NCBI GenBank assembly: GCA_900314865.1
Contig: OMWW01000002.1
Coordinates: forward strand, 66,136-130,135
From: an uncultured Erysipelotrichaceae bacterium
Lineage (GTDB): Bacteria > Bacillota_I > Bacilli_A > RFN20 > CAG-826
Reading direction: 5' to 3'
DNA: 64,000 bases
Under the pieces are notes generated by a model. It saw only the letters and a list, made by a program, of their open reading frames with translations, ran no database searches and was not told the DNA's origin. The stretch's first letter is position 1; each line of letters starts with the position of its first letter. Below are positions 21,740 to 63,487 of the stretch, one piece after another. Position numbers and translations under genes: made by a program.

Positions 21740-23165
21740 AAGTTCTGTAATATTTAATAACCCAATGGACAAAAAGACCGTTAAGGGTGCGAACAAATCC
21801 AAAAAGAAATACATCAAAAAATATGGTGATGATTCTAAAAAGGATTACAAGATTAGCTTTAAAGACATCGATACCTTAGACTATATCAAGGCTAGTAACA
21901 TCGTCTTTGGAGAAAGTAATCAAAAATTTGAAGATAACGCTCTTATCGTTGGTAATATCCGTATGGGTTTTGGCCACTACCGCATTTCCATTGCTATGGC
22001 CTCTGCCGCTAGAGCGTTAGGTTTCAAACCATATTGGTTAGACTTAGCGTCTTTTGATGCGACTGGTTCAAAAATGATCCGTGAACAAAATGATATGTAC
22101 TCATTAGCATCACGTATCTCTCAAAAATCAAAGCTCTTTAATAAACTTGTTTGGGAACCACTCAACTCCGAAGGATTTAAGAAGATTACCTATAACGCGA
22201 AAGATCAAAAAAATAGCGAGCTTCTCGTCCCTATCTTCAAAAACATCGATAAAGAAATCCCTTATATCGCCACTCACGTGTGGCCAAGCCAAGCCGCGAT
22301 TCATGCGGGTATGAAGAATGTTGTTAACGCCATTCCTGATAACTGGCCAATGGGATTACACCTTTCTGAAGGCGCAATCCATACTGTTCAAACTCCATTT
22401 GCTTACTTTGGTTATAAGACCTTAAATGGTTTTGCTAAAAAACCACTCAACGGTATCCCTGAAAGTGATTTAAAAATGGTTGGTTGCTACATTGACCACG
22501 AATTACTTGTTAACCTTGAAGAAGATAACAAACTTCGTAAAGAAAGAATCGCTAATGGTAAACCACTCAGAATCCTTATGACAGTAGGAGGAGCGGGAGC
22601 AGGATTTGATATGTTCCTCGCTATGGTAAAACACTTAATCCCATACGTCAAAGAAAACAAAGTCGCTCTCTTCATCAACTTTGGTGACCATCTTGATGTT
22701 TATGAAAAACTTTGTAAGAAAATTAGCGGTATTAAAACCACCAATTACTTCAATCAATATGGGGAATTGAAAGAATTCGTTAAAAATATTAGACATGGCG
22801 AAGCTACTGGAATCTACGCGATTTATAACAAAGACATCTTTGAAGCTGTATATTCCACTAACTTATTAATGCCTGTCACTGACTTATTAGTCACAAAACC
22901 AAGCGAATTAGCGTATTACCCAATTCCAAAGCTCTTCATGAGACATATTGGTGGTCATGAAGTATATGGAGGAATTAACGGAAGAGAATATGGTGATTCT
23001 ATTCCAGAATGTCCTACTAAAAAAGAAATCAATGCGATGTTAGATAAGATTATCTCTGACAAAGAATTAATCCCACACATCTGTGATCGTATCGATTATT
23101 TAAAGAAAGTTGGTCATTATGATGGAGCGTACGAATGTGTTAAACTCGCCGCTCACATGAAATAA
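21729..23165 (+). CDS. Putative GT-B fold glycosyltransferase (MGDG-synthase/UgtP-like), or an uncharacterised sugar-cluster protein.
   Basis: N-terminal glycine-rich IRMGFGHYRI and C-terminal VTKPSELAYYPIPKLFM...GHE resemble GT28-type signatures. This assignment is uncertain. Confidence 0.35.
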   Translation: MLDKSSVIFNNPMDKKTVKGANKSKKKYIKKYGDDSKKDYKISFKDIDTLDYIKASNIVFGESNQKFEDNALIVGNIRMGFGHYRISIAMASAARALGFKPYWLDLASFDATGSKMIREQNDMYSLASRISQKSKLFNKLVWEPLNSEGFKKITYNAKDQKNSELLVPIFKNIDKEIPYIATHVWPSQAAIHAGMKNVVNAIPDNWPMGLHLSEGAIHTVQTPFAYFGYKTLNGFAKKPLNGIPESDLKMVGCYIDHELLVNLEEDNKLRKERIANGKPLRILMTVGGAGAGFDMFLAMVKHLIPYVKENKVALFINFGDHLDVYEKLCKKISGIKTTNYFNQYGELKEFVKNIRHGEATGIYAIYNKDIFEAVYSTNLLMPVTDLLVTKPSELAYYPIPKLFMRHIGGHEVYGGINGREYGDSIPECPTKKEINAMLDKIISDKELIPHICDRIDYLKKVGHYDGAYECVKLAAHMK

Positions 23166-28432: not shown

Positions 28433-28708
28433 TCAGATGGTCAAATTTTCTTCAATTAGTTTGTTTATTAAATTTCTAGATTTGTCTAAAGAGTAGCCTT
28501 CTTCACCAGTAAGTCTTGCTGCAAAGGCTTCTAGCACTAGTTGCTGAGCCTGTAGCTCTTGTTCTCTCTTTTCAAAAGAGGAAATATCCATAACTACTAA
28601 TTCACTTTTTCCGTTTTTAGTTATGTAAATAGGTTTCCCGCTTCCTTTGCATTTTTTAACAGCTTCTTCGTATTTTAACTGGATACCATCAGATGTTGTG
28701 ATTCTCAT
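28433..28708 (-). CDS. Orphan Phd/YefM-like type II antitoxin.
   Basis: PIYITKNGKSELVVMDISSF matches the YefM/Phd pattern. No cognate toxin ORF is adjacent. Confidence 0.45.
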   Translation of the reverse strand: MRITTSDGIQLKYEEAVKKCKGSGKPIYITKNGKSELVVMDISSFEKREQELQAQQLVLEAFAARLTGEEGYSLDKSRNLINKLIEENLTI

Positions 28709-29024
28709 ACAAAACCCCTTTAAATAAATTTAGTAGATTTTTTAATGTTTTACAATTTGTCTCAAAAAAACATTTTATCAATGTCTCAGCGACAATTAAG
28801 CGAAGTAAAAAACATTACTGTATAGTTTTTCATACTACTTTATGAAATTTGATAAATCTTAGAGGTACAGATTATGAAGAAAAACGCAATCTTAAATGCG
28901 CTTAATCTAAATTAGTTAAATGAAATAAAATCCGAAATTTAGATTCGAACTTTTTTAAACTTAACGATACAAAATTTATAAACACTGCAACAAAACTAGA
29001 AAGGATCGGCCAAACCGATCTTTT

Positions 29025-29300
29025 CTAATTATCTCCGTAGTGTGACCACATTGAATGAACAACAATTGTGTTAATATCTTCGTGAACTTTGTAAACGAGC
29101 CTATGTTGAAGATTAATTCTTCTAGAATAATAGCCTTGTAAATCGCCAACAAGTTTTTCATAACTTGGTGGGTTTTGAAAAGGGTTTTTAGCGATAAGGT
29201 TTAATAATTTCTTTACTTTATCTTCCAATCCAGCGCTTTTAAGTAGTTTTTTATCTTTCTCAGCGTTTTTAGTGAATTTAATAATCCACATAACTACCAC
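29025..29300 (-). CDS. yoeB: YoeB/Txe family type II toxin (mRNA interferase).
   Basis: YYSRRINLQHRLVYKV...IVVHSMWSHY matches the YoeB signature. The probable start is the internal Met (MWIIKF...). Confidence 0.85.
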   Translation of the reverse strand: MVVMWIIKFTKNAEKDKKLLKSAGLEDKVKKLLNLIAKNPFQNPPSYEKLVGDLQGYYSRRINLQHRLVYKVHEDINTIVVHSMWSHYGDN

Positions 29301-29545
29301 TCTTCATTTGGATTATAAGTAGACATTTTAGAAATATCTTCTTTTTCGCCTTCTTTAATCTTTTCAACAAGACCTTTCTGAGAAACTAAATAAATAGTTT
29401 CCAACATAGCGTTGTATTCAGCTTCAGAGATAATAACTGCGTTTCCATTTTTTGTGTTCACAGTGATGGAGTCATTAAACTCAATGACGTTATCAATAGA
29501 ACTAAAGAGATTTTTTCTCAAAACAGAAATATTTGTAACTGCCAT
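29294..29545 (-). CDS. yefM: YefM/Phd family antitoxin.
   Basis: MAVTNISVLRKNLFSSIDNV...AVIISEAEYNAMLETIYL, the canonical YefM sequence. It overlaps the yoeB start. Confidence 0.85.
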   Translation of the reverse strand: MAVTNISVLRKNLFSSIDNVIEFNDSITVNTKNGNAVIISEAEYNAMLETIYLVSQKGLVEKIKEGEKEDISKMSTYNPNEEW

Positions 29546-34862: not shown

Positions 34863-36353
34863 TTATTGTTCGAGCTGAGGAATTTCAACTTTGTAGTGAA
34901 CCACTAACCTTTTGACCTTAAAGAAGTTAACGTTACTAATATTATCAGGAATACTGATTTTGATTTCGTCTTTTGTAAAGCTATCGATATAGAATTTAGA
35001 AATCTTTTCGTTGTCAGTATCATCGATATTTAATTTGGTATGGGCAAAATTGCCACCAGTAATTGAAAGATCATCTCTTGCGCCCACTTCACTCATATCG
35101 AGCACTAATTCAATGCAGCTAACTTTATCAGGATCGAAGTCTTTGACATCAACCTTATCTTGGTTGCCTTTTCCGTCCGCTTTATAGTATTTACTATAAT
35201 TTTTGTTTAAGCGTAAATAAGGAGTTAGGGCAGATGTGCCTCTAGCGTGTTGATGCCATAAATCATCTTCATCATAGCTTTGAGTTTCACAATGGCCTTT
35301 TCCACTAATGGTGTCAACATAACTTTCGAGATCATAATATGCGCCATCATAAGATTTAACGAATGTATCAGTTTCTTCTTCACGCCACACCATATTATCA
35401 AGCCATTTTTCTTGATAGCATAGTCTAACACCTTGTCTAAAAGTTTCACTTGGTGCTTCGATAAATTCTGCAACAAACTTATAAACACCGTCTTGTTCAG
35501 TTACGAACGTGTAATCAGCATCGGTGCTAATGATTTGTTCGCTGCCATTTAAATGCCATCCCTTAAAGAGACAGAAATTATCATTTTGATAATTATAGAA
35601 TGGGTAAGCATGAATTGTGACAGAAGTTCCATTAGCGACAACTTTATAGCCTTTATTATTCGCTACCGCATTATCGATAGCAACATTGCCTTTTGAGGAA
35701 TCAGAACTCGTTACACTGACATAGGTTTTCGTGCTTTCGCAACTAAAATAATATTTAACAGAATCGATTACCCATGTATTGCCACTATAGAAATAGTCTT
35801 TGTTACCAATATAATAATAAGCACTACCTTCTCTATCAAAACCACTACCTGTGTTTATAACATAAGTGTAATCATATTCTTTTACAGAATGAATACTACT
35901 TGTAGCATTTGTCAGAGTGTCCTTATCTAAATTAGCCATATCAGGATCGGCAAGATAATAGACATATAATGCATAGTAATACCCTAAACTTGTGCCACTC
36001 AGATAATGGCCAGTGATATCCATTCTTGTGACACCTCTAAGTGGGGTTTCGTTGATTAAATAATCATTAGCGCTTGTCATTTCTAGAGCAACACCCTCTT
36101 TAGTGGAAGGAGCTGATTTCGTTTTAAAAACTATATCATTGCCAAGACCAGTTTTAAACGTACCTCTATACACATCTCCATCTTGCACAAAGTTAGATTT
36201 ATTTGATGCGTCGATAGTTAATGTGTAATCATTCTCTGCACGAGTTCGAAGACTAATAAAGTCATTAGTACTCATAAAAGTAGCAATACCAATACATATT
36301 GATAAAGTTACTGTAGTAATAGTAGTAAGAGTGAATAAATCTTTCTTTTTCAT
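34863..36353 (-). CDS. Secreted or surface protein of unknown function.
   Basis: Start reassigned to ATG 36351-36353 (MKKKDLFTLTTITTVTLSICIGIATF..., a signal/anchor sequence) with SD GAGGT. The track's GTG-initiated N-terminal extension contains the promoter -10 TATAAT. Confidence 0.6.
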   Translation of the reverse strand: MKKKDLFTLTTITTVTLSICIGIATFMSTNDFISLRTRAENDYTLTIDASNKSNFVQDGDVYRGTFKTGLGNDIVFKTKSAPSTKEGVALEMTSANDYLINETPLRGVTRMDITGHYLSGTSLGYYYALYVYYLADPDMANLDKDTLTNATSSIHSVKEYDYTYVINTGSGFDREGSAYYYIGNKDYFYSGNTWVIDSVKYYFSCESTKTYVSVTSSDSSKGNVAIDNAVANNKGYKVVANGTSVTIHAYPFYNYQNDNFCLFKGWHLNGSEQIISTDADYTFVTEQDGVYKFVAEFIEAPSETFRQGVRLCYQEKWLDNMVWREEETDTFVKSYDGAYYDLESYVDTISGKGHCETQSYDEDDLWHQHARGTSALTPYLRLNKNYSKYYKADGKGNQDKVDVKDFDPDKVSCIELVLDMSEVGARDDLSITGGNFAHTKLNIDDTDNEKISKFYIDSFTKDEIKISIPDNISNVNFFKVKRLVVHYKVEIPQLEQ

Positions 36354-36383
36354 ATTATTTACCTCACACATATTATACGCGTG

Positions 36384-36404
36384 CTGTGTCACAAAAGTGT
36401 CACA
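36384..36404 (-). promoter_or_regulatory. Tandem direct-repeat promoter motif (TGTGACAC-TTT-TGTGACAC-N8-TATAAT).
   Basis: Seen directly in the minus-strand sequence. See the shared motif at 33947 and 43862. Confidence 0.45.
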
Positions 36405-36744
36405 AAAAAGGACGCCACTGTGGGCGACTTAATTTTTATTGATTTAGCCTAAATTTAGAGCCTTACCATATGTGTCGAATGATTCCTGTGAAAGGAGAGA
36501 AAGTATGAAAAATGATCAAGTGTTAGTAGATCTTAATTTGTGTTTTGTGTTTTGATTAATTAATTATTTGTGAGTAAGTTATCTATGTCAATTGTTGAAT
36601 AGAGATTTTTCGCGCTAGAAAAATGCGTTTTTATTATTTCTTTTCTCATTTTTTTACACTGAATCATACTAAATAAATAATTCCTTGAATTACGAAGTTA
36701 AAAGTTATATAACTTTAGATACTTTGTTTAGGAGAGTGAATACT

Positions 36745-38019
36745 ATGAAAATTAGAAATATCATTGCTACTTCGTTATTAGGGCTCATATCTATTGCTGG
36801 ATTATCTTCTTTATTAATCAATAAGACTAATAAACCAGTTATCGCTAAAGCAGAAGATGAAGTAACCATGAAAAGAACCTATGTCGGAATTGATCGAGAT
36901 GGAAAAATGGAGAACGCTGATCAATATTTAAATGCTGAAGGAGTTAAGGCGGTTGTTTGGTGTTTTACTGGAGATTTTAGTCTTACTGAATCAAACGGAG
37001 AATTATTTGATATCACTGTGATTGGTCCTCGACTTGGAATTACTGAATTACCAGTTAATCTTCCAAAAAGTAGAATCTTTAGAACTCCTATTTCCACTCC
37101 AGCAGGAATTACATCTCTAAAAGATGTCACTATTTATAATATGTCTAAAGAAGATATTATTAGATATGACTCTCCAAACACTATTACAGTAGGCGATTGG
37201 GATTATGCTACTTATACCCTCGGCATGAGAGATGAAAAATTTAAATTTATGCCATCAGGCACTACTGTTACTTTAGATCTCACTGAATGCGATATCAATT
37301 GGTTAGATGCTTACGCGACACATTATTTTGTAAGCTATTGTTATTTTGATTACATGTTTAGCTATACATCTATTTTTGTGAAAATGGAATTTGACACTAC
37401 ATTAAATAAATTAGTCGCAACTACCACTCAAGATATTTGGTGTACAGGTATTATCTTTACTAGAAACGATCCAAATGGAACTCCATATAGCTGGGAGTCA
37501 AAATGGAATCAAACCACTAATCAAGATGATGTAGAAAGTTCATGCAACTTCAAAATGTTAGAAGGCAAATTTGGAGATAATTATAACTGTGCCTCAGTAG
37601 ATGATATTGAACGTACTGAAATATACGCACAAAAGATATTAGATAAATTTACTTGTACCGGAGAAACTAGAAGCTTCTCTAACGATGATTGGGTTTATTT
37701 CTTCTTTGATTTACAATATGAATCTTATTCATTTAAAGATTTGCTTAAAACCTCAGTGGCTAAAGAAAGTTCTACTTATCTTAGAGAAGTAGCCTTATAT
37801 AGATATGACTATGTAGTTTTCTATAAAGATTATGGCTTATATGATTATATGGATAGAGGTAGCTCTCCAAATAAAGCCTTCTCAGCAAAGAACACATCCA
37901 CTAGTGGCGTCTTAAATGATTTGAGCTCTGATAGCACTCCAATATTAATTGTTGTTGCCGCTACTGCTACTTTATCATTAACCGCTTTACTTATTATCAA
38001 AAAGAAAAAAAGTAGATAA
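36745..38019 (+). CDS. Surface-anchored protein of unknown function.
   Basis: Start moved to MKIRNIIATSLLGLISIAGL (signal peptide; SD AGGAGAG). A C-terminal hydrophobic segment is followed by a KKKKSR tail, as in the nuclease. Confidence 0.6.
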   Translation: MKIRNIIATSLLGLISIAGLSSLLINKTNKPVIAKAEDEVTMKRTYVGIDRDGKMENADQYLNAEGVKAVVWCFTGDFSLTESNGELFDITVIGPRLGITELPVNLPKSRIFRTPISTPAGITSLKDVTIYNMSKEDIIRYDSPNTITVGDWDYATYTLGMRDEKFKFMPSGTTVTLDLTECDINWLDAYATHYFVSYCYFDYMFSYTSIFVKMEFDTTLNKLVATTTQDIWCTGIIFTRNDPNGTPYSWESKWNQTTNQDDVESSCNFKMLEGKFGDNYNCASVDDIERTEIYAQKILDKFTCTGETRSFSNDDWVYFFFDLQYESYSFKDLLKTSVAKESSTYLREVALYRYDYVVFYKDYGLYDYMDRGSSPNKAFSAKNTSTSGVLNDLSSDSTPILIVVAATATLSLTALLIIKKKKSR

Positions 38020-38058: not shown

Positions 38059-38393
38059 TTTTATTGCAATAGATATCCACCAGACAGTCCGGTGATTTTT
38101 CATAGTCGGGCAGATATTAGCCCTCTTTGATACACATTTCTCTATTTAAATAGTCACTATACCAAGATACTTCTTCGTATTCCAAAGTGCAATTCCAAAG
38201 TGCAATTACTCAATTTTGCCCTTTGGGATAAAGTGTTTTTGTTATAAAAAGCCGCCCATTATAGACGACTTAATTTACATTGATTTACAGTTTTGTATAA
38301 AATCACTTTTCGTATTATGCCGCACTTTCATCCCTTCGCGAGCCCCTGAAATGTACAAAAAAGATCTACCCTTCGATAGATCCTTTAATGTAA

Positions 38394-39824
38394 TTAATCT
38401 TGGTAGTGTTTTATCGCATCATAGATGGTCTTTTCTTTTGATTCATGACCATATTTATCGACGTCTAATTTATTTCTCACTTCGTGGGTCAAAGAGCACG
38501 GTCCTCCAATGCATCCAGTAAGACATCCCATACCTTCAATGAAGTTAAAGTCAACAGTGCCAGTTTTAGCTTTCATAAGTGCTAAACGACAATTATCTAA
38601 ACCATCAACTGAGATTGGTTTAACTTCAAATGAACTTCCTTGTTCTTTAAGAGCTTCTTTAACTGCATCGGTAAGTCCGCCGCTACGAGCGAAGATTCTG
38701 CCATAGTATGAAGCATTATCTAGTGGCGATTCTTCTAAAGAAGCAAAATCAATTTCTTTAGCATCGATCATCGCTTGAAGTTCTTCAAATGTTAAAGCAA
38801 CATCAACATATGGAGCGACTCTTTCATCTTTGATTTCTTGTTTCTTAGAAATACATGGTCCAATAAACATAATCTTACAATTTGGATTATGCTCTTTGAT
38901 CCATTTCGCAATGGTTGCCATAGGCGATAAATTATGAGAAATCTTATCTGCTAAAGTTGGGAAATATTTCTTAATGAAAGTTACGAATGTTGGACAGCAA
39001 CTAGAAGTTAAGAATCCTTTTTCTTCGAGTTCTTTAGCCTCAGCGTAGCTAACCATATCTGCTCCTAAAGCAGCTTCAATTACACTTCGATAGCCAAGTT
39101 TTTGAATAGCGGTCACAACTTGTCCTAAGGTAACACCTTTAAATTGTGATGAGATTGAAGGAGCGACAATCGCATAGACCGGATATTTATTTGAATAATC
39201 AGAATCTTTCAAAATATCGATTGCATCTTTGATGAAACTTTTATCCATGATTGCACCAAATGGGCATTGATAGACGCAAGCTCCACATTGGACACACTTT
39301 TCATCATCGATTTTGGCAGAGTGATCGTCATTTGTAGAAATAGCTTTAACCTTACAAGCTTGTTCACATGGTCTAAGATAGTTTTGAATCGCGTTATATT
39401 GACATGCTTTCGCACACATTCCGCAGTTGATACATTTAGTTTTATCGATGATTGCAGTTCTATTTACTTCGTCAAATCTAATCGCATCTTTACGACAAGC
39501 TTTTTGACAACGATGGGCAATGCAACCGCGACATCTATTCGTGACTTCATATCCACCTAAAGGACATTCATCACAAGCAATCTTGACGACTTCAACAATA
39601 TTTTTAATATTCTTATTGCCGCCTAAAGCTAATTTCATTCTTTCTAAAACGATAGCTCTTTCTTTATAAATACAGCATCTCATCGTGGATTTTGGTCCCG
39701 GTGATATTCTTAAAGGAATCTCGTTATATTCTTCTAAAAGAGTATCATTAAATAATCCTCTAGCGATTTCTTTGAGAATCTTATACTTGAGTTCTTGAAC
39801 ACTTGTATCAAATCTTGTATCCAT
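38394..39824 (-). CDS. hydA: [FeFe] hydrogenase catalytic subunit with N-terminal ferredoxin-like [4Fe-4S] domains.
   Basis: H-cluster motifs L1 (TSSCCP), L2 (GPCISKKQE) and L3 (EGMGCLTGCIGGP), plus three CxxCxxCxxxCP clusters at the N-terminus. Confidence 0.8.
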   Translation of the reverse strand: MDTRFDTSVQELKYKILKEIARGLFNDTLLEEYNEIPLRISPGPKSTMRCCIYKERAIVLERMKLALGGNKNIKNIVEVVKIACDECPLGGYEVTNRCRGCIAHRCQKACRKDAIRFDEVNRTAIIDKTKCINCGMCAKACQYNAIQNYLRPCEQACKVKAISTNDDHSAKIDDEKCVQCGACVYQCPFGAIMDKSFIKDAIDILKDSDYSNKYPVYAIVAPSISSQFKGVTLGQVVTAIQKLGYRSVIEAALGADMVSYAEAKELEEKGFLTSSCCPTFVTFIKKYFPTLADKISHNLSPMATIAKWIKEHNPNCKIMFIGPCISKKQEIKDERVAPYVDVALTFEELQAMIDAKEIDFASLEESPLDNASYYGRIFARSGGLTDAVKEALKEQGSSFEVKPISVDGLDNCRLALMKAKTGTVDFNFIEGMGCLTGCIGGPCSLTHEVRNKLDVDKYGHESKEKTIYDAIKHYQD

Positions 39825-39836
39825 AGTATCTGCTCC

Positions 39837-41015
39837 TTAAAAGTAAGTTACTTTGACGTTTTTACCCATCAATTTTAGCTTTTTAGCTAATTTGTCAATT
39901 AAATGCATTTTGGTCGTAAAGTTGATGCCGGTATCTTCTCCTTGATGAGCGTTGTTAATCGCGCAGCCTACAAAGAAATTAATATCGGTAGCTTGTTCAA
40001 ATAAACATTTAGCAATTTGACTCGCTCCATCGATCTTATAAAACCAGGTGACGAACAAGTCGTTTTGTTTTAAATAGTTATCAGCATATTCTAAAACTTT
40101 ATTAATCGTAATGATCCCTTCGGTAACTAAATCAACTCCTTCGATTGAAGCAGTTGGAGGTACTTCTTTATCTAAATATTCAGTTTGTAAAACCAAAGGT
40201 TGATTTAAATATCTAGAAACGAGATTACCAGTTGTTCCTCCTGAGACGATATGAATACCTTCTTTAGCAAAAAATAATGAAAGTATTTCTTCATCATCCT
40301 CTTTGTTAGTTGGAGGACCAATTAATAAATTAACTTGTTGTCTTTCTCTGATTCTTACCACTGCGACAGTGGTGTCATCACCTGGTCGGCCATTATATAG
40401 TTCATTACATTGACTTGCTAATAGAGTGGCTAACGCCTTAGAAGAATAGTCATTTCTATAGAAAATAGACATAAACTCTTTAATCTGAGGCATATCCCAT
40501 CCAAAATTCAATGTTTCACCCACTCCTGCATATTTAACACCATCGCTCATTAAGATAAATGTGTCATATAATGAGGCTTCAATTTTCGCATGATAAATAG
40601 TCTTACCATCGATAACCATTGATGAATAAGATAAATCCATTACTTTGCCATTGCGAATCATAAATGGTTCGGGATTATCAAAGTTATAAATATCAACATA
40701 TTTGTTGTCTTGAATTTTGATGATAGTGAAAGTTGAATAAGCAACTTTTCTCACTTTACATACTGGCAATGTATTAGCGATACATCTAATGCATTCCTTG
40801 ATGGAAATATCTCCTGCAATCATTGAGGAAAGCATCTTGCTAGTGAGAGTGGATAAAATATTGGCTTTCACTCCACTACCAAGACCATCCGCCAAAACCA
40901 AAATCTTTGTTGATTCATCTTTAGAAGTGACTTCTACATGGTCACCACAAAGCTCTTCACCAAAATGATTAAAGGAAAGATATCCAATTTCCGTCATGTA
41001 ACGATTATTTATCAT
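39837..41015 (-). CDS. PP2C-type (SpoIIE/RsbU-like) serine phosphatase.
   Basis: LADGLGSG and MSDGV metal-binding motifs. It sits between hydS and hydA, as in group C sensory hydrogenase loci. Confidence 0.65.
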   Translation of the reverse strand: MINNRYMTEIGYLSFNHFGEELCGDHVEVTSKDESTKILVLADGLGSGVKANILSTLTSKMLSSMIAGDISIKECIRCIANTLPVCKVRKVAYSTFTIIKIQDNKYVDIYNFDNPEPFMIRNGKVMDLSYSSMVIDGKTIYHAKIEASLYDTFILMSDGVKYAGVGETLNFGWDMPQIKEFMSIFYRNDYSSKALATLLASQCNELYNGRPGDDTTVAVVRIRERQQVNLLIGPPTNKEDDEEILSLFFAKEGIHIVSGGTTGNLVSRYLNQPLVLQTEYLDKEVPPTASIEGVDLVTEGIITINKVLEYADNYLKQNDLFVTWFYKIDGASQIAKCLFEQATDINFFVGCAINNAHQGEDTGINFTTKMHLIDKLAKKLKLMGKNVKVTYF

Positions 41016-42684
41016 CTTTAATTGTGTCCTTTAATGAAGTTAAGGCGACCTTTGTCTCCGCGGTAGTCTCACCTAAAAGTGAAGCGATTTCTTGTACCGC
41101 TCTCATATTCTTTTCGACAACTTTATCGGTGATTTCGAGAGATTTTCTCACAACCTCTTCATGTTTTTGTCTACTGAGTTCTTCGTTAGTAATGTCTTTC
41201 ATAATTGAAAGAAGAACATGGAATTTTTCATCATAGACAATCGTATTTTCAATGTATTTGTTATATTCACTTAAATATGATTTGCGGCGGAAAACCATCT
41301 CCCCACCTAAGGCGTTACAGAAAACGGTAGGATCTAAAATTGAGGAAACGTTTTTATGAATAACAATACTTGGCTTTTCAATATTGATGATACGGCACAT
41401 CGTTTTGTTTAATGATTGAATATTGAGTGATTCATCGAGCACTAAAATGCCATTTGGTGAATTGCTGACTATGTTATCAGAGAACGATTCTGCTTTTTCC
41501 ATCAAATAGGGAAGGCACATTTCTAAAGCGGCCTTGCCTTGAATGATGGCAATAGCTTTTTCTCGACATGTATCATATCCACAAGAACCACAGTTAAGAA
41601 TCTTTGATTTTTCGGTCTTACCCATCTCGATGAGTTTGGCTTCGATTTCTTCTTCACTTGGTGTGGCTTCTTTAGCACCGATTGAATAATAGTTTTTAGA
41701 AATATCTTTGTAACCAATCTTACCTTCAGTGAAATCTAGATCACCTGCACTCTTATTGATATCAATGTAGCTAGCGATAACGCTCTTTTCTTTATTGGAA
41801 ACTGGGCCATTGATGCAGCTACCTTCACAGCTGGACATTTCGATGAAACATTTATGAATCTTACCAGCTAAGATATCTTCAATGACTCGACGTGAATTCT
41901 CAACTCCATCGACTGCTAAATATTGATAATCTTTGTTGGAGCATTCCATCGTACGAAGAATGCCACCAGTGGTTGGGAATAGGCGGGCTTTACTTTCTTT
42001 CTTTTTCCAATCATATTTGACTTCCTTAAGGGTGATATTCTCACTCTTGAGCCAGTCTTCTAATTCTTTAAAAGTTAAGGCTACATCAATGATATCAAAA
42101 TTTAAATCTGCTTCATTCTTTTTAGCGATACATGGTCCAACAAAGACAACCTTTGCTTCTGGATCACGGCTTTTAATATCTTTTCCATGCGCGAGCATAG
42201 GCGAAAGAATATTTGCCAAATATTTTCGAGCTTCTGGATAATGCTTTTGAATTAGTAAATTGATTGAATGACAGCAAGAAGAGATGATAACGTCTCGATC
42301 CTTTTCTTGAAGCATTTCATCGTAGGCTTTTTTAACGATGGTCGCGCCAATCGCGGTTTCTTCAACTGCATAGAAGCCTAATTTCTTTAAAGCATTTACA
42401 ATCTCATCCATTGAAGTGTATGAGAAATAGCTGATGAAGCTTGGAGCTAAAGAAACATATACTTTCTTATTGTTCTTGAAAAGATTCTTAACAACATCAA
42501 CATCATTACGAATCACTTTAACTTCTTGAGGACACACTAAAAAGCAACGTCCACATAAAATACAACTATCTTGAATAATCTGAGCTTTATTTGAGGCGAA
42601 AGAAATCGATTTAATCGGGCAGTGACGAATGCATTTATAACAGTTCTTACAGTTTGTTGTTTTACTTTGTAAACAGTATTCCAT
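41005..42684 (-). CDS. hydS: Sensory [FeFe] hydrogenase HydS (group C) with a C-terminal PAS domain.
   Basis: N-terminal [4Fe-4S] motifs and degenerate H-cluster motifs (ISSCCHS, VGPCIAKK, EMSSCEGSCINGP), plus an extra CGSCGYDTC cluster and a PAS-like C-terminal ~120 aa. Confidence 0.75.
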   Translation of the reverse strand: MEYCLQSKTTNCKNCYKCIRHCPIKSISFASNKAQIIQDSCILCGRCFLVCPQEVKVIRNDVDVVKNLFKNNKKVYVSLAPSFISYFSYTSMDEIVNALKKLGFYAVEETAIGATIVKKAYDEMLQEKDRDVIISSCCHSINLLIQKHYPEARKYLANILSPMLAHGKDIKSRDPEAKVVFVGPCIAKKNEADLNFDIIDVALTFKELEDWLKSENITLKEVKYDWKKKESKARLFPTTGGILRTMECSNKDYQYLAVDGVENSRRVIEDILAGKIHKCFIEMSSCEGSCINGPVSNKEKSVIASYIDINKSAGDLDFTEGKIGYKDISKNYYSIGAKEATPSEEEIEAKLIEMGKTEKSKILNCGSCGYDTCREKAIAIIQGKAALEMCLPYLMEKAESFSDNIVSNSPNGILVLDESLNIQSLNKTMCRIINIEKPSIVIHKNVSSILDPTVFCNALGGEMVFRRKSYLSEYNKYIENTIVYDEKFHVLLSIMKDITNEELSRQKHEEVVRKSLEITDKVVEKNMRAVQEIASLLGETTAETKVALTSLKDTIKDDK

Positions 42685-42686
42685 AG

Positions 42687-42950
42687 TTAGCCCTCAACAC
42701 GAGAAAGAACATATTTTTCAAAGACATCATCAAAATTCTTTGGAGTGACACCAGTGATGATTTCATCATCAACTTGAATAGATACACCAGCGATACCGCA
42801 CTTGCCTAAACAGAAAGTACCTTTTAAAACAACTTTGTCTTCGAGTTTTTCTTTAGCAAGTCTCGCTTTGAATAATTCGATGATTTCATAGCTTCCTTTT
42901 AAGTGGCATGAAGAGCCAACACATACAAGAACTGTCATATTACACCTCAA
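42687..42950 (-). CDS. Thioredoxin-like [2Fe-2S] ferredoxin (HydC/NuoE-like small subunit).
   Basis: VLVCVGSSCHLKGS...CLGKCGIAG has the four Cys of the thioredoxin-like 2Fe-2S fold. SD GAGGTG. Confidence 0.65.
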   Translation of the reverse strand: MRCNMTVLVCVGSSCHLKGSYEIIELFKARLAKEKLEDKVVLKGTFCLGKCGIAGVSIQVDDEIITGVTPKNFDDVFEKYVLSRVEG

Positions 42951-43126
42951 GATTTTGTAACAAAATCAATATATCAATAGTCTACTAAAAATATCGATTA
43001 TCTTCCATAACAAATATTGAACATTAGAAAACAAAAAATCGTCAATATAATGACGATTTAATGTTAAAAGGGGGCTTATTCGCCAACCGGTTTCAAAGCC
43101 CCCATTAAATCTTATTGATTAATATG

Positions 43127-43822
43127 TTAACAATCCCAAGTTACAGTTATGCTGTCAAGAAATAAAGCGCAATATCCGCCACCAGAAACAACCGCTGTAC
43201 TAAAAATTTTAATTTCGAATAAAGCATATCTAATCACATGATTTTGATCTGGCTTTGTCCATGTATGAGTGTAGTGATGATCATTTATGACAGTGTTGCT
43301 GGAAAATTCCCCTTGTTGATAGAGTTCGTCTTCACTAATAGGATTATTTATACATTTATTAACATCATAATCTTCGCCAAAAAACCTAACTGTCGCACTA
43401 TAACTGGTACTATTTTGATTGTCAGCGCCTGGAAGCAAATGGAACGAGAATGAGAATGATTGCAAGTTATTGACACCAACTGCAAACGTAGTTTTTAAGT
43501 CATGGGAGTTGTCATTGACTGGATAATCGGTCCAATAGAAACAATCGTTTTGAACACCAAATCCATGTTGATTACCCCAGGTTACGGTATTTGTTCTTGC
43601 AGAAATTGCACTACGATTCACGGTAGGAGCAATAGTTTTTTCGTCGTCTATGTCGCTGCTCCAATAGGTATTTCCCACACCCTGATCAAATGTAAAACTC
43701 TTTTCGCTTGCTAACACTTTATTGAATGAAGGTAATACTTTACCTGTTTGAGTTGTAATGATTGTCAATGCTGTTAATGTTGCTGCCGTTATAGACGCTA
43801 ATAATAATCCTTTATTTTTCAT
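43127..43822 (-). CDS. Secreted protein of unknown function.
   Basis: Signal peptide MKNKGLLLASITAATLTALT. Its promoter carries the tandem TGTG repeat motif. Confidence 0.55.
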   Translation of the reverse strand: MKNKGLLLASITAATLTALTIITTQTGKVLPSFNKVLASEKSFTFDQGVGNTYWSSDIDDEKTIAPTVNRSAISARTNTVTWGNQHGFGVQNDCFYWTDYPVNDNSHDLKTTFAVGVNNLQSFSFSFHLLPGADNQNSTSYSATVRFFGEDYDVNKCINNPISEDELYQQGEFSSNTVINDHHYTHTWTKPDQNHVIRYALFEIKIFSTAVVSGGGYCALFLDSITVTWDC

Positions 43823-45255: not shown

Positions 45256-46125
45256 TTACTCAACAAATCTACCAGCGAAGTCGACCAATCCTAATGATTC
45301 GTGATATCTATTGTAGACCCAGTCATATCTCGCCATTCTATCAAGAGAGGTTTCTTCGGGTGTAACGTCGTCGTCATTTTCAACTCCATCAGTACGTTTG
45401 AAGTACTCTTTGACATCAGCACCAGGAATTGAATTATATGTGGTTATTGTATATTCCCAAGAATCTTTAAGTTCGTTTTTGTTGGTGTCGCTTCCTTTAC
45501 TACTATCATGACAAACAGAATAATCATTCCATTGAGCACTATTAGCGCACCATTTAGCAATACGGGTGAAAGCTTCATACTTACCAAAAGAAGCATCGTT
45601 GTTTTCATTTTCATCTTTTGATTCTTGAATTGTAACTCTATTAACACCAGAACTGTTAACAGTAACGTTAATAGTTTTATTTAAGATGTTGGACAATGTC
45701 TCATCAGCTTGTCCACCTTTGGAACGGTAAACAACGACATTTGTCCAATAATTACTATCTGTATAGCCACTTGGAACTGCTACTTCCAAAACATATTTAT
45801 CATTTGGAACAATTTGCTCAAGGTGAGCCCAAGCTTTTTCTTCGTTATTGTTGAAGAAACACGCCCATGTTTCTGTGTTTTTTTGCACGCCTGCATCTTC
45901 ATATGTGTACCACCAATTTTTGACATTGATGAGGTTTACATAAAATGCATTACCTGCTATAGCAGCGCCTTCATGAATAGTAATTGTGTTATCCACTCTT
46001 GTATAAGCTTTTGCTTGATATGCTAGTTTTAATTCGATATTACCATTTGTTGTAGCGGCCAAACCAATAACCACGCCACAGGATAATATAGAAGTGATAC
46101 CAGCGATTAATAAACTCTTTTTCAT
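45256..46125 (-). CDS. Lipoprotein of unknown function.
   Basis: MKKSLLIAGITSILSCG lipobox. Canonical TTGACA-N17-TAACAT promoter upstream. Confidence 0.6.
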   Translation of the reverse strand: MKKSLLIAGITSILSCGVVIGLAATTNGNIELKLAYQAKAYTRVDNTITIHEGAAIAGNAFYVNLINVKNWWYTYEDAGVQKNTETWACFFNNNEEKAWAHLEQIVPNDKYVLEVAVPSGYTDSNYWTNVVVYRSKGGQADETLSNILNKTINVTVNSSGVNRVTIQESKDENENNDASFGKYEAFTRIAKWCANSAQWNDYSVCHDSSKGSDTNKNELKDSWEYTITTYNSIPGADVKEYFKRTDGVENDDDVTPEETSLDRMARYDWVYNRYHESLGLVDFAGRFVE

Positions 46126-46310: not shown

Positions 46311-48122
46311 GGGGCTGTTAAGAAACCTAAAAGGTGATTAAGCCCCTTTTAGTTTGCGCTTAAGACTTAACAGATAAACTGTTAAGAAACCTTTTTCTTC
46401 TTTCGGTGTTCTAATCTCAGCGACTCATTAATATCTTTTTTGCGTATCTTTTTCTTGAAAGTTTTTGCGTCAACAATTGGCAGTTCCTCATCTTTTAAAT
46501 CAGATGGAGCGATCCAATATTCAAATTTTGCTTTTCCATCATAGAACGTGAATAATTTTCTAAGGAGATGACCGATTAGAATTAGACAAATTTCAACATG
46601 CACCTTGTCTAATCCTCTTCTTCTGAAACGATCATATTGCATATCTTGTTTAACTATACCAAATACACCTTCGACCTGAGAGCTTCTATTAACTCTCATC
46701 TCTATTCCTTTGGCGGTTAATAGGTTTTCTCTTGCGACCGTTTTTCCTTTCCAAAATTCATATGAAACATCAAAACACCTAAATATCGCTTTTTTATCTT
46801 TAACGCCTTCTTTACAGACTTTTTGATATTTACACCTTTTACAATTTGCGATCACATATAAATATCCATGGCTCTTAGGATGGCGACCATTATACTCTGA
46901 ATATTTTGTAGCGGTTTTGCCGTTTAAACAAACAAGTTCCTCCTTATCATTAAATGAATATAAATCTATTGCGTTCCCTTTTCTTAATTGTTCCCAATCT
47001 TGAAATTTAACATAGTTGCCAATATTGTTTACAATCATGTAGACATAGTTTTTCCATGAACCATATCCTGCATCGGCACATAAGTTTTTGGGATAAAATC
47101 CATAATCTATATGAAATTGTTCAACAGTTGGTATAAAAGCGTAAAAATCTGTTCTTTCTTGCCCGACGTAATAAGTCAAAGCAATTCCTTTAGAAACAAT
47201 AATTTGTATATTGTATGCGGCATGCATATTGCTCCCTACTCCGGAATAAAAGTCTTCTTTTAATGTCATCGCGGTTGCATCCTTATCGGTTTTAAAATAG
47301 GAATTCCTATTTAGGCCACATATCTCTTCTTTTTCTTCATATTCAAGTAACTTAAGAAGATATTTTTCAAGTTGCTTATAATCCTTTTTGCCGTCTTTAT
47401 TTAAAGTGAAATCACCTAATTTTGTAATATATTCAGCAACTTCAATTGACTTCAAAAGTTCGATTTTGTTAATAGTGAAATACTTATTCAAAAGTGCTTT
47501 GATATTCTCATCTAACTTTTTATGAAATGTCGTGGGTTTCCAAACAAACTTATACTTATTTGCATTAGCCTCAATCTTGGTTCCATCAAGAAAACAATCA
47601 TCAACGTTTATTCCTGTTTCTTTAATGAATTGAGAGACTAAAAGCGAATATATTTTATGATGAAACTTAACAAATAAATTGTTAAGAAACTCTCCAATCT
47701 TTGCATATGAGGGATTTTCGTTATCCATTAAATACATAAATCTAACATCATATGTAAAACTATCTTCAATTTTCCTTAATGTTCCTGGATGTTTAGAAAA
47801 AGCATATATGGAAGCAGCAAATAAATTGTAATAGTTATATGGAGGTCTTCCTCCTTTGGAATAATCTTTATAACATTCTCGATGTATCAATTCTCCAACT
47901 CCAGAATTTTCAAGAAAAACTAAAAACTTATTCAATTTTTCTTCTTCCTTCTTGTTAAGTTGGTAGGAAGAAAACAAAAAAATTGTTTTATGGTAAAATA
48001 AGGCATATCAATACCTCCCTCGACAAGAGATATTGTAACAAAAGAGGCGATTTCTTACGATTTCACCTCTTTTTTGTAAACTAAAAGGGGCCTAGTCACC
48101 TTTTAGGTTTCTTAACAGCCCC
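46311..48122 (-). mobile_element. IS1182-family insertion sequence, 1812 bp.
   Basis: Perfect 26-bp terminal inverted repeats, GGGGCTGTTAAGAAACCTAAAAGGTG at 46311-46336 and its reverse complement at 48097-48122, flank a single transposase ORF. No obvious target-site duplication. Confidence 0.75.
46382..47977 (-). CDS. DDE transposase, IS1182 family (IS5 superfamily).
   Basis: N-terminal GGRPPYNYYNLF matches the IS1182 GRPxY motif. 531 aa with a C-terminal basic tail. Confidence 0.7.
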   Translation of the reverse strand: MFSSYQLNKKEEEKLNKFLVFLENSGVGELIHRECYKDYSKGGRPPYNYYNLFAASIYAFSKHPGTLRKIEDSFTYDVRFMYLMDNENPSYAKIGEFLNNLFVKFHHKIYSLLVSQFIKETGINVDDCFLDGTKIEANANKYKFVWKPTTFHKKLDENIKALLNKYFTINKIELLKSIEVAEYITKLGDFTLNKDGKKDYKQLEKYLLKLLEYEEKEEICGLNRNSYFKTDKDATAMTLKEDFYSGVGSNMHAAYNIQIIVSKGIALTYYVGQERTDFYAFIPTVEQFHIDYGFYPKNLCADAGYGSWKNYVYMIVNNIGNYVKFQDWEQLRKGNAIDLYSFNDKEELVCLNGKTATKYSEYNGRHPKSHGYLYVIANCKRCKYQKVCKEGVKDKKAIFRCFDVSYEFWKGKTVARENLLTAKGIEMRVNRSSQVEGVFGIVKQDMQYDRFRRRGLDKVHVEICLILIGHLLRKLFTFYDGKAKFEYWIAPSDLKDEELPIVDAKTFKKKIRKKDINESLRLEHRKKKKVS

Positions 48123-58808: not shown

Positions 58809-59477
58809 TTAAGATATAGTCATGGAAATCTTTTTATCTAAATAATCCGCTAAATCATCAACACCAATGTCTTTAAGCGCGCTAACCCGAAATACTTTTG
58901 CATTCGGATTTCTTTTAAGAATATACTCTTTACATTTATCAAAATCAAAATCAAAAACAGGAAGAGTGTCGATTTTTGTTATTACCGCAATCTCGCTTAC
59001 CTCAAACATAAGTGGATATTTGAGTGGTTTGTCTTCCCCTTCTGGAACCGATAAAAGCATCATATTTAAGTTACTGCCAGTATCAAATTCTGCCGGACAA
59101 ACTAAGTTTCCGATATTCTCCAAAATCACCACATCTAAATCGGTTAAATCAAAGGACTTAAAAGCATCGTTTACCATCTGAGCAGTTAAGTGACACGCTC
59201 CGGAAGTATGAACTTGAATTGAGCGGGTTTCTGTCGTGTTAACGATTGTTTTTGCGTCTTCTTCTCCATCAATATCAGCCTCTAAAACACCAATACGATA
59301 TTTCTTCTTAAGACGATTGATAAGGTTAACTAAAAGAGTAGTCTTTCCTGCTCCTGGAGAAGCCATAACATTAATAAAATAAATATTCTTGGATTTTAAA
59401 AAATCTCGAACATCTTGAGCTTTCTTGTTATTTTCAACCAAAATATCTTCTTTAACTTTGACAACACGATAGTCCAT
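58809..59477 (-). CDS. hypB: Hydrogenase/urease nickel-incorporation GTPase HypB (G3E family), paralog 1.
   Basis: SPGAGKTT Walker A, SGACH metal-site motif and ENIGNLVCPAEFDTG. Confidence 0.8.
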   Translation of the reverse strand: MDYRVVKVKEDILVENNKKAQDVRDFLKSKNIYFINVMASPGAGKTTLLVNLINRLKKKYRIGVLEADIDGEEDAKTIVNTTETRSIQVHTSGACHLTAQMVNDAFKSFDLTDLDVVILENIGNLVCPAEFDTGSNLNMMLLSVPEGEDKPLKYPLMFEVSEIAVITKIDTLPVFDFDFDKCKEYILKRNPNAKVFRVSALKDIGVDDLADYLDKKISMTIS

Positions 59478-59579: not shown

Positions 59580-60254
59580 ATGGGTGAAGTCAAAATAATC
59601 GCTGTAAATCGTTCCGCTTACGCTGATAATGATCTCGAAGCAGAAGCTTTAAGAGGTTATTTAAAAGACAAAGGGACTTTTTTAGTGAATGTAATGTCTT
59701 CTCCAGGTGCGGGAAAGACCACCACTCTTACAAAATTAATAAATTTATTAAAAAATGAATTAAGGATTGGAGTGATGGAAGCAGATATAGATAGTGATGT
59801 TGATGCGTTGTCTATCGCTAAGAATACCGGAGTTAGATCAATTCAGATTCATACCTCTGGAATGTGCCATCTCGATGCCGGAATGACTAAGTCGGGATTA
59901 GATGAAATTGATATAAGCGATTTAGACCTCGTCTTCCTAGAAAACGTTGGTAATCTAGTCTGTCCTGCTGAATTTGATACAGGAGCGTCTATGGATATGG
60001 TAATCCTATCAATTCCAGAAGGAGACGATAAGCCGTTAAAGTATCCACTCATCTTTGAAAAGTGCGACCTCGTACTAATCAACAAAATTGATACAATTGA
60101 TTACTTCGATTTCAACTTTGAAAGATGTGAAAAAGATATTAGGTGGAGAAATAAAAACGCCACCATTATTAAAATAAGTGCGAAAACAGGTGAAGGCATT
60201 GAGGATGTCAAAACCTATTTCATAAATAAAATTCAAAACTGGAGGAAAGAATAA
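59580..60254 (+). CDS. hypB: HypB GTPase, paralog 2. It is the first gene of the hypB-X-hypA operon.
   Basis: SPGAGKTT, SGMCH, ENVGNLVCPAEFDTG. About half of its residues are identical to the divergently transcribed paralog. Confidence 0.8.
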   Translation: MGEVKIIAVNRSAYADNDLEAEALRGYLKDKGTFLVNVMSSPGAGKTTTLTKLINLLKNELRIGVMEADIDSDVDALSIAKNTGVRSIQIHTSGMCHLDAGMTKSGLDEIDISDLDLVFLENVGNLVCPAEFDTGASMDMVILSIPEGDDKPLKYPLIFEKCDLVLINKIDTIDYFDFNFERCEKDIRWRNKNATIIKISAKTGEGIEDVKTYFINKIQNWRKE

Positions 60255-63150: not shown

Positions 63151-63487
63151 GTTAGGGATTGTCGTTCACGTAATTAAACAAATCGAAGATTTAGCAGCTA
63201 AGCAACAAGTTAAAGAAGTTGTTGAACTCACCTTAGAAGTTGGAGAAGTTTCTGGAGTAGTTAAAGAATATTTCTACGACGCCTTTGAATGGGCGAAGAA
63301 ACGTACTGAATATATGAAGAATTGTAAACTCAATCTCATCATTATTCAGGGAATCACTTATTGTGAGAGCTGCGGAAAAACTTATTCCACAACTGAGTAT
63401 GGGAAAGAATGTCCATATTGTCATTCGACAAAAACCTATTTAGTTACTGGAAAAGACGTGATGATTAAAAACGTCAAAGTAATATAA
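63143..63487 (+). CDS. hypA: Hydrogenase nickel-incorporation protein HypA.
   Basis: MHELGIV... (N-terminal MHE Ni-binding motif) and a C-terminal zinc site CESCG...CPYCHS. 114 aa. Confidence 0.85.
   Translation: MHELGIVVHVIKQIEDLAAKQQVKEVVELTLEVGEVSGVVKEYFYDAFEWAKKRTEYMKNCKLNLIIIQGITYCESCGKTYSTTEYGKECPYCHSTKTYLVTGKDVMIKNVKVI

Follow-up and report, generated by a model that had tools for sequence, protein, structure and literature searches.

A probable hfsABCD-type operon with genes for a sensory-type and a group B [FeFe] hydrogenase in a rumen Erysipelotrichaceae-like bacterium

[quoted passage not shown] Here we describe a four-gene cassette with the same gene and domain order on the minus strand of contig OMWW01000002.1 from an uncultured Erysipelotrichaceae bacterium. 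The analysed stretch of this contig, 64 kb in length, is called the window below. In T. saccharolyticum, deletion of hfsA or hfsB increases ethanol yield and adhE expression, but only when hfsC and hfsD are intact, and deletion of hfsB alone leads to more hydrogenase activity (PMC5707799). Expression of hfsD alone is sufficient for the phenotype (PMC11837493). According to these genetic experiments HfsA and HfsB are regulators and HfsD is the working hydrogenase (PMC5707799, PMC11837493). In Ruminococcus albus the transcripts of a cluster encoding HydS, a phosphatase, HydA2 and AdhE are 111-fold lower in the presence of a partner organism that removes H2 (PMC6776011). No paper was found in the literature that describes the signalling mechanism or the phosphatase substrate of such cassettes.

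Group B [FeFe] hydrogenases were recently reported as the main H2 source in the human gut (PMC12578642), and H2 supply drives methane formation in the rumen (PMC6776011). Understanding the HydS/PP2C switch would explain how fermenters throttle their H2 output. We consider it probable (about 0.7) that the locus in the window is an hfsABCD-type operon in which a hydrogenase that evolves H2 during fermentation is coupled to an H2 sensor of its own.

Composition and conservation of the cassette

A previous interpretation of this DNA, made without database searches (the sequence-only reading), had proposed the gene order ferredoxin, hydS, PP2C, hydrogenase. All four minus-strand open reading frames (ORFs) were confirmed at the coordinates listed in Table 1. 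The gene order and the four domain assignments were correct, with profile matches far beyond chance. The genes had also been described as tightly packed with overlaps. The packing is indeed tight, whereas an overlap (11 nt) exists only at the HydS/PP2C junction; the ferredoxin/HydS and PP2C/hydrogenase junctions are gaps of 2 nt and 12 nt, respectively. The overlap of the hydS stop with the PP2C start is also kept in related loci. Some gene callers chose an alternative 386-amino acid (aa) start for the phosphatase. The homologues favour the 392-aa start and with it the overlap, since most of them down to 59% identity have 389–393 aa and cover the full query.

The first gene encodes an HfsA-like, thioredoxin-like [2Fe-2S] ferredoxin related to NuoE/HoxE (PF01257, E 4.5e-10, profile positions 66–144 of 145). 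Its Cys6, Cys11, Cys43 and Cys47 form a Cx4C...Cx3C pattern. Two start codons are available. The ATG at 42938 appears more likely than the TTG at 42950, because a GAGGTG ribosome-binding site precedes it and because gene callers used it on contigs that encode the identical proteins.

A relative of the phosphatase domain is encoded in at least 547 genomes (one genome per species). The best 80 of these species genomes, all selected via the phosphatase, served as the sample for the analysis of synteny. HydS adjoins the phosphatase in these loci wherever the contig allows. Of the 80 related species genomes, 59 have all four genes in the same order and on the same strand. Outside Bacteroides, a link of the group B enzyme to HydS and PP2C is thus very common. 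Eight loci keep the group B gene while a contig end cuts the upstream side, three have no sequence downstream of the PP2C gene, and ten offer downstream room but no group B gene. Where the locus extends past PP2C and keeps the group B gene nearby, this gene directly follows the phosphatase gene in nearly all cases (67/70).

The cassette was found in Erysipelotrichaceae, Oscillospiraceae, Christensenellaceae, Lachnospiraceae, Selenomonadales and Anaeroplasmatales. Proteins identical to those of the window are encoded on cow-rumen metagenome contigs (PRJEB21624, STEW19 records). The two nearest genomes are the Erysipelotrichaceae metagenome-assembled genomes (MAGs) RUG13318 and SIG214, with 76–93% aa identity over the four proteins, and an Anaeroplasmatales MAG (L008) carries the cassette as well. 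The sequence-only reading had called the locus notable in a Mollicutes- or Erysipelotrichia-like genome. Its guess of the lineage agrees with these relatives, and since they share the cassette its occurrence is not unusual. In four close relatives (L085–L088; 77–88% HydS identity) the cassette is intact between unrelated flanks on both sides (GGDEF, SHOCT, aldolase/LMWPc, LrgAB). A DDE/IS-type transposase gene (PF01609) lies at 46382–47977, 3.4 kb upstream of the cassette in the window. Because it stays intact between wholly different flanks and has a transposase nearby, the cassette behaves as a self-contained unit, which suggests that the four genes move or rearrange together.

Table 1. Features of the cassette and of its flanking non-coding DNA (positions in the window).
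Feature	Position (strand)	Size or residues	Remarks
Ferredoxin gene	42687..42938 (-)	83 aa	Extendable to TTG at 42950 (87 aa; ORF 42687..42950)
hydS	41005..42684 (-)	559 aa	
PP2C/SpoIIE-family phosphatase gene	39837..41015 (-)	392 aa	
Group B hydrogenase gene	38394..39824 (-)	476 aa	
HydS N-terminal 2x[4Fe-4S] motifs	42532..42651 (-)	C12/15/18/22 and C41/44/47/51	
HydS H-domain	41803..42468 (-)	73–294	
HydS four-cysteine motif Cx2Cx4Cx16C	41515..41592 (-)	C365, C368, C373, C390	PF04060
HydS PAS domain	41194..41451 (-)	About 412–497	
HydS C-terminal single helix	41011..41190 (-)	499–558 (60 residues)	From model
Phosphatase PPM/PP2C (SpoIIE-family) catalytic domain	40344..41015 (-)	1–224	
Phosphatase C-terminal domain	39840..40343 (-)	225–392 (168 residues)	Rossmann-like alpha/beta
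Intrinsic terminator hairpin and U-run	38354..38392 (-)		Directly after hydrogenase stop codon
Putative promoter TCGATA-18-TATATT with TG	42968..42997 (-)		Promoter scan, consensus match only
9-bp inverted repeat AAATCGTCA-N6-TGACGATTT, then T-run	43036..43059 (-)		Terminator scan

The two hydrogenase paralogues

HydS and the group B enzyme are paralogues which are 31% identical over 321 aligned positions. CpI numbering was taken from HMMER alignments to solved CpI and Thermoanaerobacter kivui HydA1 chains, and the residues were located by script. Conservation was counted over 68 orthologues of HydS and 60 orthologues of the group B enzyme, all from related genomes.

HydS matches PF02906 (E 8e-51), PF04060 (E 2e-10) and Fer4. 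More than 8000 homologues were found, and most of the 120 listed are 557–565 aa long. The SSCCHS motif recognized by the sequence-only reading is present at residues 135–140, with L1 reading S135-S-C137-C138-H139. L2 is G183-P-C185...K188...E191 and L3 is E282-M-S284-S-C286...C290. The four cysteine ligands of the H-cluster, C138, C185, C286 and C290 (CpI C300, C355, C499 and C503), were each found in 68/68 orthologues. Thus C355, C499 and C503 of CpI are kept, as are K358 and E361. Five positions are substituted relative to CpI, namely M353G (G183), M497S (S284), E279K (K119), S319A (A157) and Q325M (M163); the position matching CpI E282 was left unscored, as the aligners disagree. Conservation of the characteristic residues is high (G183 68/68, S284 67/68, H139 67/68, A157 65/68, C137 64/68). 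The H-cluster motifs had been called degenerate, which is true of the altered residues (SSCCH, M353G, M497S) but not of the cysteine at C299 or of the ligands, all of which are kept. The assignment as a sensory-type protein was borne out: HydS of Thermotoga maritima (TmHydS) likewise carries Gly and Ser at M353 and M497 (G177 and S267) and has lost E279 and S319 (PMC8163306, PMC10055695), the latter two being Lys and Ala in the window protein.

In the segment that separates the H-domain from the PAS domain the four cysteines of a Cx2Cx4Cx16C motif are invariant in 68/68 HydS orthologues. This motif has been described for M2e/M2f HydS enzymes (PMC8163306) and is the putative binding site of a signalling [4Fe-4S] cluster. 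The H-cluster cysteines, the altered second sphere, the four-cysteine motif and the PAS domain are all present, which places the protein, a putative sensor, in group C (HydS, M2f type).

Residues 331–559 of HydS were modelled with AlphaFold2 from an alignment of 40 homologues (mean pLDDT 80). The model contains a five-stranded PAS core at about residues 412–497 with a pLDDT of about 88–92. When this segment was compared with the PDB using Foldseek, 184 hits with E<=1e-3 were obtained, and the 50 matches listed were all PAS/LOV-type sensor domains or proteins containing them. PF00989 scored 23.0 bits on the segment scanned alone (gathering threshold 22.6) and 19.5 bits, which is below the threshold, in a scan of the full-length protein. 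The sequence-only reading had named a C-terminal region without a PAS fold as evidence that would speak against it; model, Foldseek and PF00989 all support the fold. The domain does not form the extreme C-terminus, because a single helix of 60 residues comes after it. In the alignment of homologues most of residues 527–554, within the last 30 or so, are invariant, and conservation is higher in the helix than in the PAS domain. We propose that it is an output or linker element.

The 476-aa enzyme scored 557.2 bits with TIGR04105 (FeFe_hydrog_B1; cut-off 450; residues 5–447) and 155.8 bits with the group A model (cut-off 405.95). Consequently, it belongs to group B (B1), and the label hydA given to its gene by the sequence-only reading, which would make it a group A enzyme, had to be dropped. 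Its motifs are T273-S-S275-C276-C277-P (L1), G322-P-C324 (L2) and M432-G-C434...C438 (L3). Gly (G322) occupies the position of M353, M432 that of M497 and M302 that of Q325, and C355, K358, E361, C499 and C503 are kept. The proton relay is retained as E262 (E279), E265 (E282) and S296 (S319). L1, L2, L3 and the relay residues are conserved in 60/60 orthologues, apart from S274 (58/60), and M302 in 55/60. The six-residue L1 loop (FLTSSCCP) lacks an upstream proline, so that the alignment to CpI needs gaps at P292 and P294. Another 16 cysteines form four CxxC-type groups. L1–L3 had been described as canonical; they are canonical for group B1 but not for group A, owing to the extra residue of TSSCCP, the missing upstream proline and the Gly at M353. 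M497, E279, E282 and S319 are kept (60/60) in this paralogue, and HydS lacks M497, E279 and S319. Therefore, the group B enzyme appears built for turnover and HydS does not.

The published group B enzymes CpIII, ToHydA and Bacteroides HydM resemble the window enzyme in the six-residue L1 without upstream proline, the intact relay and several accessory cluster motifs (bioRxiv 10.1101/2025.03.17.643706, PMC12578642), and Gly at M353 is common to CpIII and the window enzyme. The M2a enzymes CpIII and ToHydA have TSCCCP, in contrast to TSSCCP in the window, where the extra residue is Ser275 (60/60 orthologues). The window enzyme is thus a B1-type relative and not an M2a enzyme. The extra cysteine of TSCCCP was reported to confer O2 stability (bioRxiv 10.1101/2025.03.17.643706, PMC12578642). 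The paper on the Bacteroides group B enzymes names no phosphatase or operon partner for them (PMC12578642).

These features also bear on the original understanding of Hfs, in which all four proteins would be subunits of a single catalytic hydrogenase from which no signal goes out. HydS would then be a slow catalytic or electron-transfer subunit, the ferredoxin an internal wire and the PP2C-like protein a structural or auto-regulatory component. The genes are tightly linked, translationally coupled and inherited as a block, and HydS retains every H-cluster ligand, C299, K358 and E361. Moreover, TmHydS and TamHydS catalyse H2 turnover at low rates (PMC8163306, PMC10055695), and T. saccharolyticum loses part of its hydrogenase activity when the entire hfs operon is deleted (PMC5707799). 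However, loss of hfsB raises hydrogenase activity and hfsD alone restores the phenotype (PMC5707799, PMC11837493), so HfsD works without HfsB. The catalytic residues of the PP2C are conserved, and the ten loci without a group B gene have HydS-PP2C near genes of HydABC type (L062, L064), NfnAB-like genes (L016 Flexilinea, L059 Desulfitobacterium) or Rex-like genes, which fits a portable sensor module. Altogether a purely catalytic complex is quite improbable.

The phosphatase, its partners and the proposed signal path

The catalytic domain of the HfsC-like phosphatase was identified by PF07228 (E 1.3e-13, 51.8 bits, cut-off 25, residues 38–222). Its metal-binding motifs GD (25), DG (43–44; DGxG), SDG (157–159) and DD (213–214) are intact; these aspartate motifs align with those of solved SpoIIE/RsbX-type phosphatases and are nearly invariant among homologues. 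The PF07228 phosphatases reported as characterised act on STAS proteins (PMC11418112).

The C-terminal domain is the least understood part of the cassette. It is conserved as strongly as the catalytic domain and carries the invariant motifs H-I-V-x-G-G-x-T, E-G-x-x-T-x-N, D-G-A-S and F-x-V-G-x-A-x-N-x-A-H-Q, and no Pfam family matched it even at E<=10. A search of 1.84 billion representative proteins returned 923 clusters (50% identity) at E<=1e-3. The match was almost always at residues of about 223–392 in proteins of about 390 aa; some matches were proteins of about 162–172 aa, possibly stand-alone forms or fragments. The domain shares its fold with a domain inside formate dehydrogenase, FwdB and NuoG chains, which we take to be a Rossmann-like domain binding dinucleotide cofactors. 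This Rossmann-like domain of HfsC-type phosphatases appears to be previously undescribed.

Two further loci showed unusual phosphatase genes. On a rumen contig with an identical HydS (L002:11688–12611) the phosphatase was called at 307 aa and has lost most of the C-terminal domain. Either the gene is naturally truncated there or the contig is misassembled. An apparent fusion of PP2C and hydrogenase in one ORF of L022 was rejected, as the coordinates place the hydrogenase in a frame that differs from that of PP2C and is merely extended upstream.

Partners of the phosphatase were sought by Pfam scans of nearly all ORFs of at least 120 aa in the window and by inspection of small intergenic ORFs, and recurrent upstream genes were found by clustering the neighbours in the 80 loci. 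A gene of about 249 aa for an APH/RIO-like kinase-fold protein (PF01636, E 1.5e-13; HGDFNPSN motif) directly precedes the ferredoxin gene in 35/80 loci (about 44%), for example in L013, L018, L036 and L066 (L066:2362–3111) and in 31 others. Its product is a candidate for the opposing kinase of the PP2C. Further upstream adhE occurs in 26/80 loci, and Rex-like and NfnAB-like genes are found in 10/80 (directly upstream) and 4/80 loci, respectively. The window contains no counterpart of the APH-like kinase (tblastn negative), adhE or the Rex-like gene. A spoIIAA/AB/sigF-like set (STAS/HATPase_c/sigma-factor-like) was found in only one of the ten loci whose ORFs were listed fully. This locus, L027, is one of those without a group B gene, and the set lies there on the opposite strand. 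Likewise, no partner-switching module of STAS protein and HATPase_c anti-sigma kinase with phosphatase is present in the window; such genes may lie elsewhere in the genome.

Composition, residues, predicted folds and gene order were determined for the locus itself, and all functional steps of the following scheme are inferred from homologues. The group B hydrogenase (HfsD-like) would re-oxidise reduced ferredoxin and vent the electrons as H2. HydS would equilibrate with this H2 at a slow, relay-less H-cluster tuned for sensing and not for turnover, and electrons would pass to its accessory clusters including the Cx2Cx4Cx16C cluster just before the PAS domain. The sensor probably has the [2Fe-2S] ferredoxin as its redox partner. 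The PAS domain and the invariant helix might change conformation with the redox state of the C-terminal cluster, and the helix may act in trans on the translationally coupled PP2C, like a split form of the PAS, coiled-coil and PPM layout of RsbP. PAS domains and coiled-coil linkers are known to control PPM phosphatases such as RsbP (PMC12143880). Finally, the PP2C would dephosphorylate a protein encoded elsewhere, and thereby hydrogenase activity or expression and the fermentation products would be matched to ambient H2.

Several observations weigh against this scheme. HydS keeps a cysteine at C299 (C137) in 64/68 orthologues, whereas TmHydS has Ala, and with this cysteine HydS may turn over faster than TmHydS. 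Cysteine occurs at this position in 17% of the group C sequences (PMC10055695), and HydS of the window is for this reason a normal group C variant. A contact between HydS and PP2C is suggested solely by the gene overlap and its conservation. The sequence-only reading was right in stating that histidine kinase and anti-sigma partners are missing: the scans revealed no gene for a histidine kinase, a Ser/Thr kinase, a STAS protein or an anti-sigma factor within the 64-kb window. Maturase genes (HydE/F/G) are also absent from the window, and H-cluster assembly is therefore not confirmable from its sequence. The likeness to T. saccharolyticum HfsA-D (ACU11594–ACU11597) is one of published descriptions and not of alignment. 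One paper calls HfsA poorly alignable (PMC11837493), whereas the ferredoxin of the window is a clear PF01257 member.

The genes around HydS also permit the interpretation that it reports the redox state of ferredoxin or another electron carrier, not H2, with the H-cluster as a mere vent or equilibrium link to H2. Electrons would reach the C-terminal cluster and the PAS domain from the [2Fe-2S] ferredoxin and the N-terminal clusters. This would agree with the dedicated ferredoxin gene heading the operon in most loci, with the Rex-like repressor genes directly upstream in 10/80 and the NfnAB-like genes in 4/80 loci, and with the description of the HfsB PAS domain as possibly responsive to redox potential (PMC11837493). 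A pure ferredoxin sensor would, however, have no need of the strongly conserved H-cluster ligands and sensory-type pocket residues, and regulation in R. albus tracks the H2 concentration (PMC6776011). We regard a ferredoxin sensor as improbable. It is not fully exclusive of the H2 sensor, because H2 and ferredoxin equilibrate via the H-cluster.

The lack of STAS and anti-sigma genes in the window and in all but L027 of the ten fully listed loci would also fit a phosphatase that acts post-translationally on the group B hydrogenase or on HydS without any STAS/anti-sigma cascade, its C-terminal domain docking or binding a ligand. The position of the group B gene directly after the phosphatase gene (67/70 loci) points in the same direction, as do the strong conservation of the C-terminal domain, its fold in common with formate dehydrogenase, FwdB and NuoG chains, and the interpretation of hfsB loss by the T. 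saccharolyticum authors as 'deregulating hfsD'. The STAS substrates reported for characterised PF07228 phosphatases (PMC11418112) argue against it. In addition, the altered adhE transcript levels of T. saccharolyticum and the 111-fold drop of transcripts in R. albus suggest a transcriptional output, and there is no phosphosite evidence. Such a direct action is unlikely. Similarly doubtful is a more elaborate version in which the C-terminal domain of HfsC-type phosphatases is the real output or a second input, binding a nucleotide or redox cofactor or docking on the group B hydrogenase. H2 output would then be switched post-translationally, and the upstream APH/RIO-like protein would be the opposing enzyme in about 44% of the loci. 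We favour the H2-sensing operon acting through the PP2C on a protein encoded elsewhere.

Surroundings of the operon and comparison with known systems

The operon is bracketed by two structures (Table 1). The downstream terminator has a folding energy of -16.3 kcal/mol (z -5.24) and was equalled by 0/200 shuffles. The upstream hairpin (-10.2 kcal/mol, z -5.3) may serve to terminate the preceding gene; alternatively, it is a regulatory hairpin or an operator that overlaps a -35-like hexamer, TTGACG. It is largely kept in L005, although the upstream sequence differs there. A lineage-conserved non-coding block, TTTTTAGTAGACTATTGATAT (42971–42991), overlaps the putative promoter at a distance of about 50 nt upstream from the ATG of the ferredoxin gene. 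Its consensus TTTAGTA(A/G)A(C/T)TA(A/T)T was found at -49 to -53 from this ATG in the window and in L005, L085, L086 and L087, against a background of 0.008 hits per 160 nt. The loci sharing it all differ in their flanking genes. The block is shared by close Erysipelotrichaceae relatives and was not found in more distant loci. It is possibly a -10 region or an operator.

A perfect 17-bp palindrome, GATTTTGTTACAAAATC (42951–42967), directly in front of the ferredoxin gene's ribosome-binding site was considered as an operator and found to be unsupported. It is unique in the window, with near-matches at chance level (21 found, 15.6 expected), and its absence from close relatives makes a conserved operator improbable. 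Rfam gave only sub-threshold chance hits for a riboswitch or leader RNA in the region upstream of the operon, and inspection of the promoter region by eye revealed no recognisable Rex box.

Several neighbouring genes of the window were also noted. Two divergent hypB paralogues are located at 58809–59477 (-) and 59580–60254 (+), each with about 220 bits for TIGR00073 (cut-off 121). They are followed at 60256–63150 by a gene for a 964-aa Fe-S flavoprotein, whose stop overlaps hypA (63143–63487). Residues 377–897 of this protein form a GltD-like NAD(P)-binding part, and its first 300 or so residues matched no Pfam family or PDB sequence. No genes for [NiFe] hydrogenase, CODH or urease, which could be clients of these nickel chaperones, are visible in the window. 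In the relative L086, a hypA gene is found upstream of the hydS cassette at a distance of about 2.7 kb. ORFs around the operon at 34863–38019, 43127–43822, 45256–46125 and 413–1810 (231–509 aa) match no Pfam family and are hydrophobic at the N-terminus; they probably encode secreted or surface proteins specific to the lineage. At 28433–29545, in an otherwise gene-free gap of 1.4 kb, three small ORFs (91, 91 and 83 aa) adjoin one another on the minus strand and look by eye like YefM/YoeB-type toxin-antitoxin pairs. A 478-aa protein consisting wholly of DUF6937 and DUF6938 (E 2e-110 and 1e-84) is encoded at 21729–23165; since it directly follows an MFS sugar transporter and a melibiase-like glycosidase, it probably belongs to a sugar-utilisation operon.

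Among the known systems, the hfsABCD operons belong to thermophilic Clostridia, while the window derives from a mesophilic, rumen Erysipelotrichaceae-like bacterium. The HydS-HydA2-AdhE cluster of R. albus 7 (Zheng et al. 2014, as cited in PMC6776011 and PMC10838669) is one transcription unit that responds to H2 and encodes a PAS-bearing, putatively H2-sensing HydS, a Ser/Thr phosphatase and a hydrogenase of the ferredoxin-only type. It comprises eight genes including adhE, lies on a plasmid and has a hydrogenase classed as A1, in contrast to the four genes, the group B enzyme and the lack of adhE in the window. The layout adhE-kinase-ferredoxin-hydS-PP2C-hydrogenase of related loci recalls this cluster, for which a neighbouring protein kinase of the Ser/Thr type has been mentioned (PMC5707799).

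TmHydS (group C, M2f; PMC10055695) has the same architecture as HydS of the window, with two N-terminal [4Fe-4S] clusters, the H-domain, the C-terminal four-cysteine cluster and the PAS domain. In the clade of the window, unlike in TmHydS, the L1 proline is replaced by an invariant His (SSCCH). The sequence-only reading had recognized an architecture proposed for H2 sensing via a serine phosphatase. This corresponds to the HydDB class '[FeFe] group C3, phosphatase-linked (putative)', defined as a sensory hydrogenase transcribed with a Ser/Thr phosphatase (PMC5037454), and such a linkage exists here with a PF07228 gene overlapping the hydS stop by 11 nt. Genetic linkage alone would place HydS in subgroup C3 rather than C1 or C2.

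Two regulatory systems show a similar outline. RsbP of Bacillus subtilis and its kin consist of a PAS domain, a long helix and a PF07228-type phosphatase (PMC12143880). RsbP is one polypeptide which acts on RsbV-P, whereas in the window the PAS domain and the helix are part of HydS and the phosphatase is separate. Moreover, the window phosphatase has no N-terminal linker and possesses the C-terminal Rossmann-like domain, unlike RsbP. In the HoxBC-HoxJ-HoxA system of Ralstonia eutropha a low-activity hydrogenase is the H2 sensor coupled to phosphorylation signalling (as cited in PMC5707799). The logic is analogous, but metal centre and proteins are unrelated, and a histidine kinase and a response regulator take the place of the PP2C.

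Consequently, the cassette is a known one, which the window extends to rumen Erysipelotrichaceae without a new principle. Thermoanaerobacterium, which is genetically tractable, is already at least as good a system as this locus for testing the mechanism. The atypical kinase gene often linked to the cassette is one open point that has been sharpened. What remains new in comparison with the described systems is the unannotated domain of the phosphatase and the frequent linkage of the group B hydrogenase to the HydS sensor.

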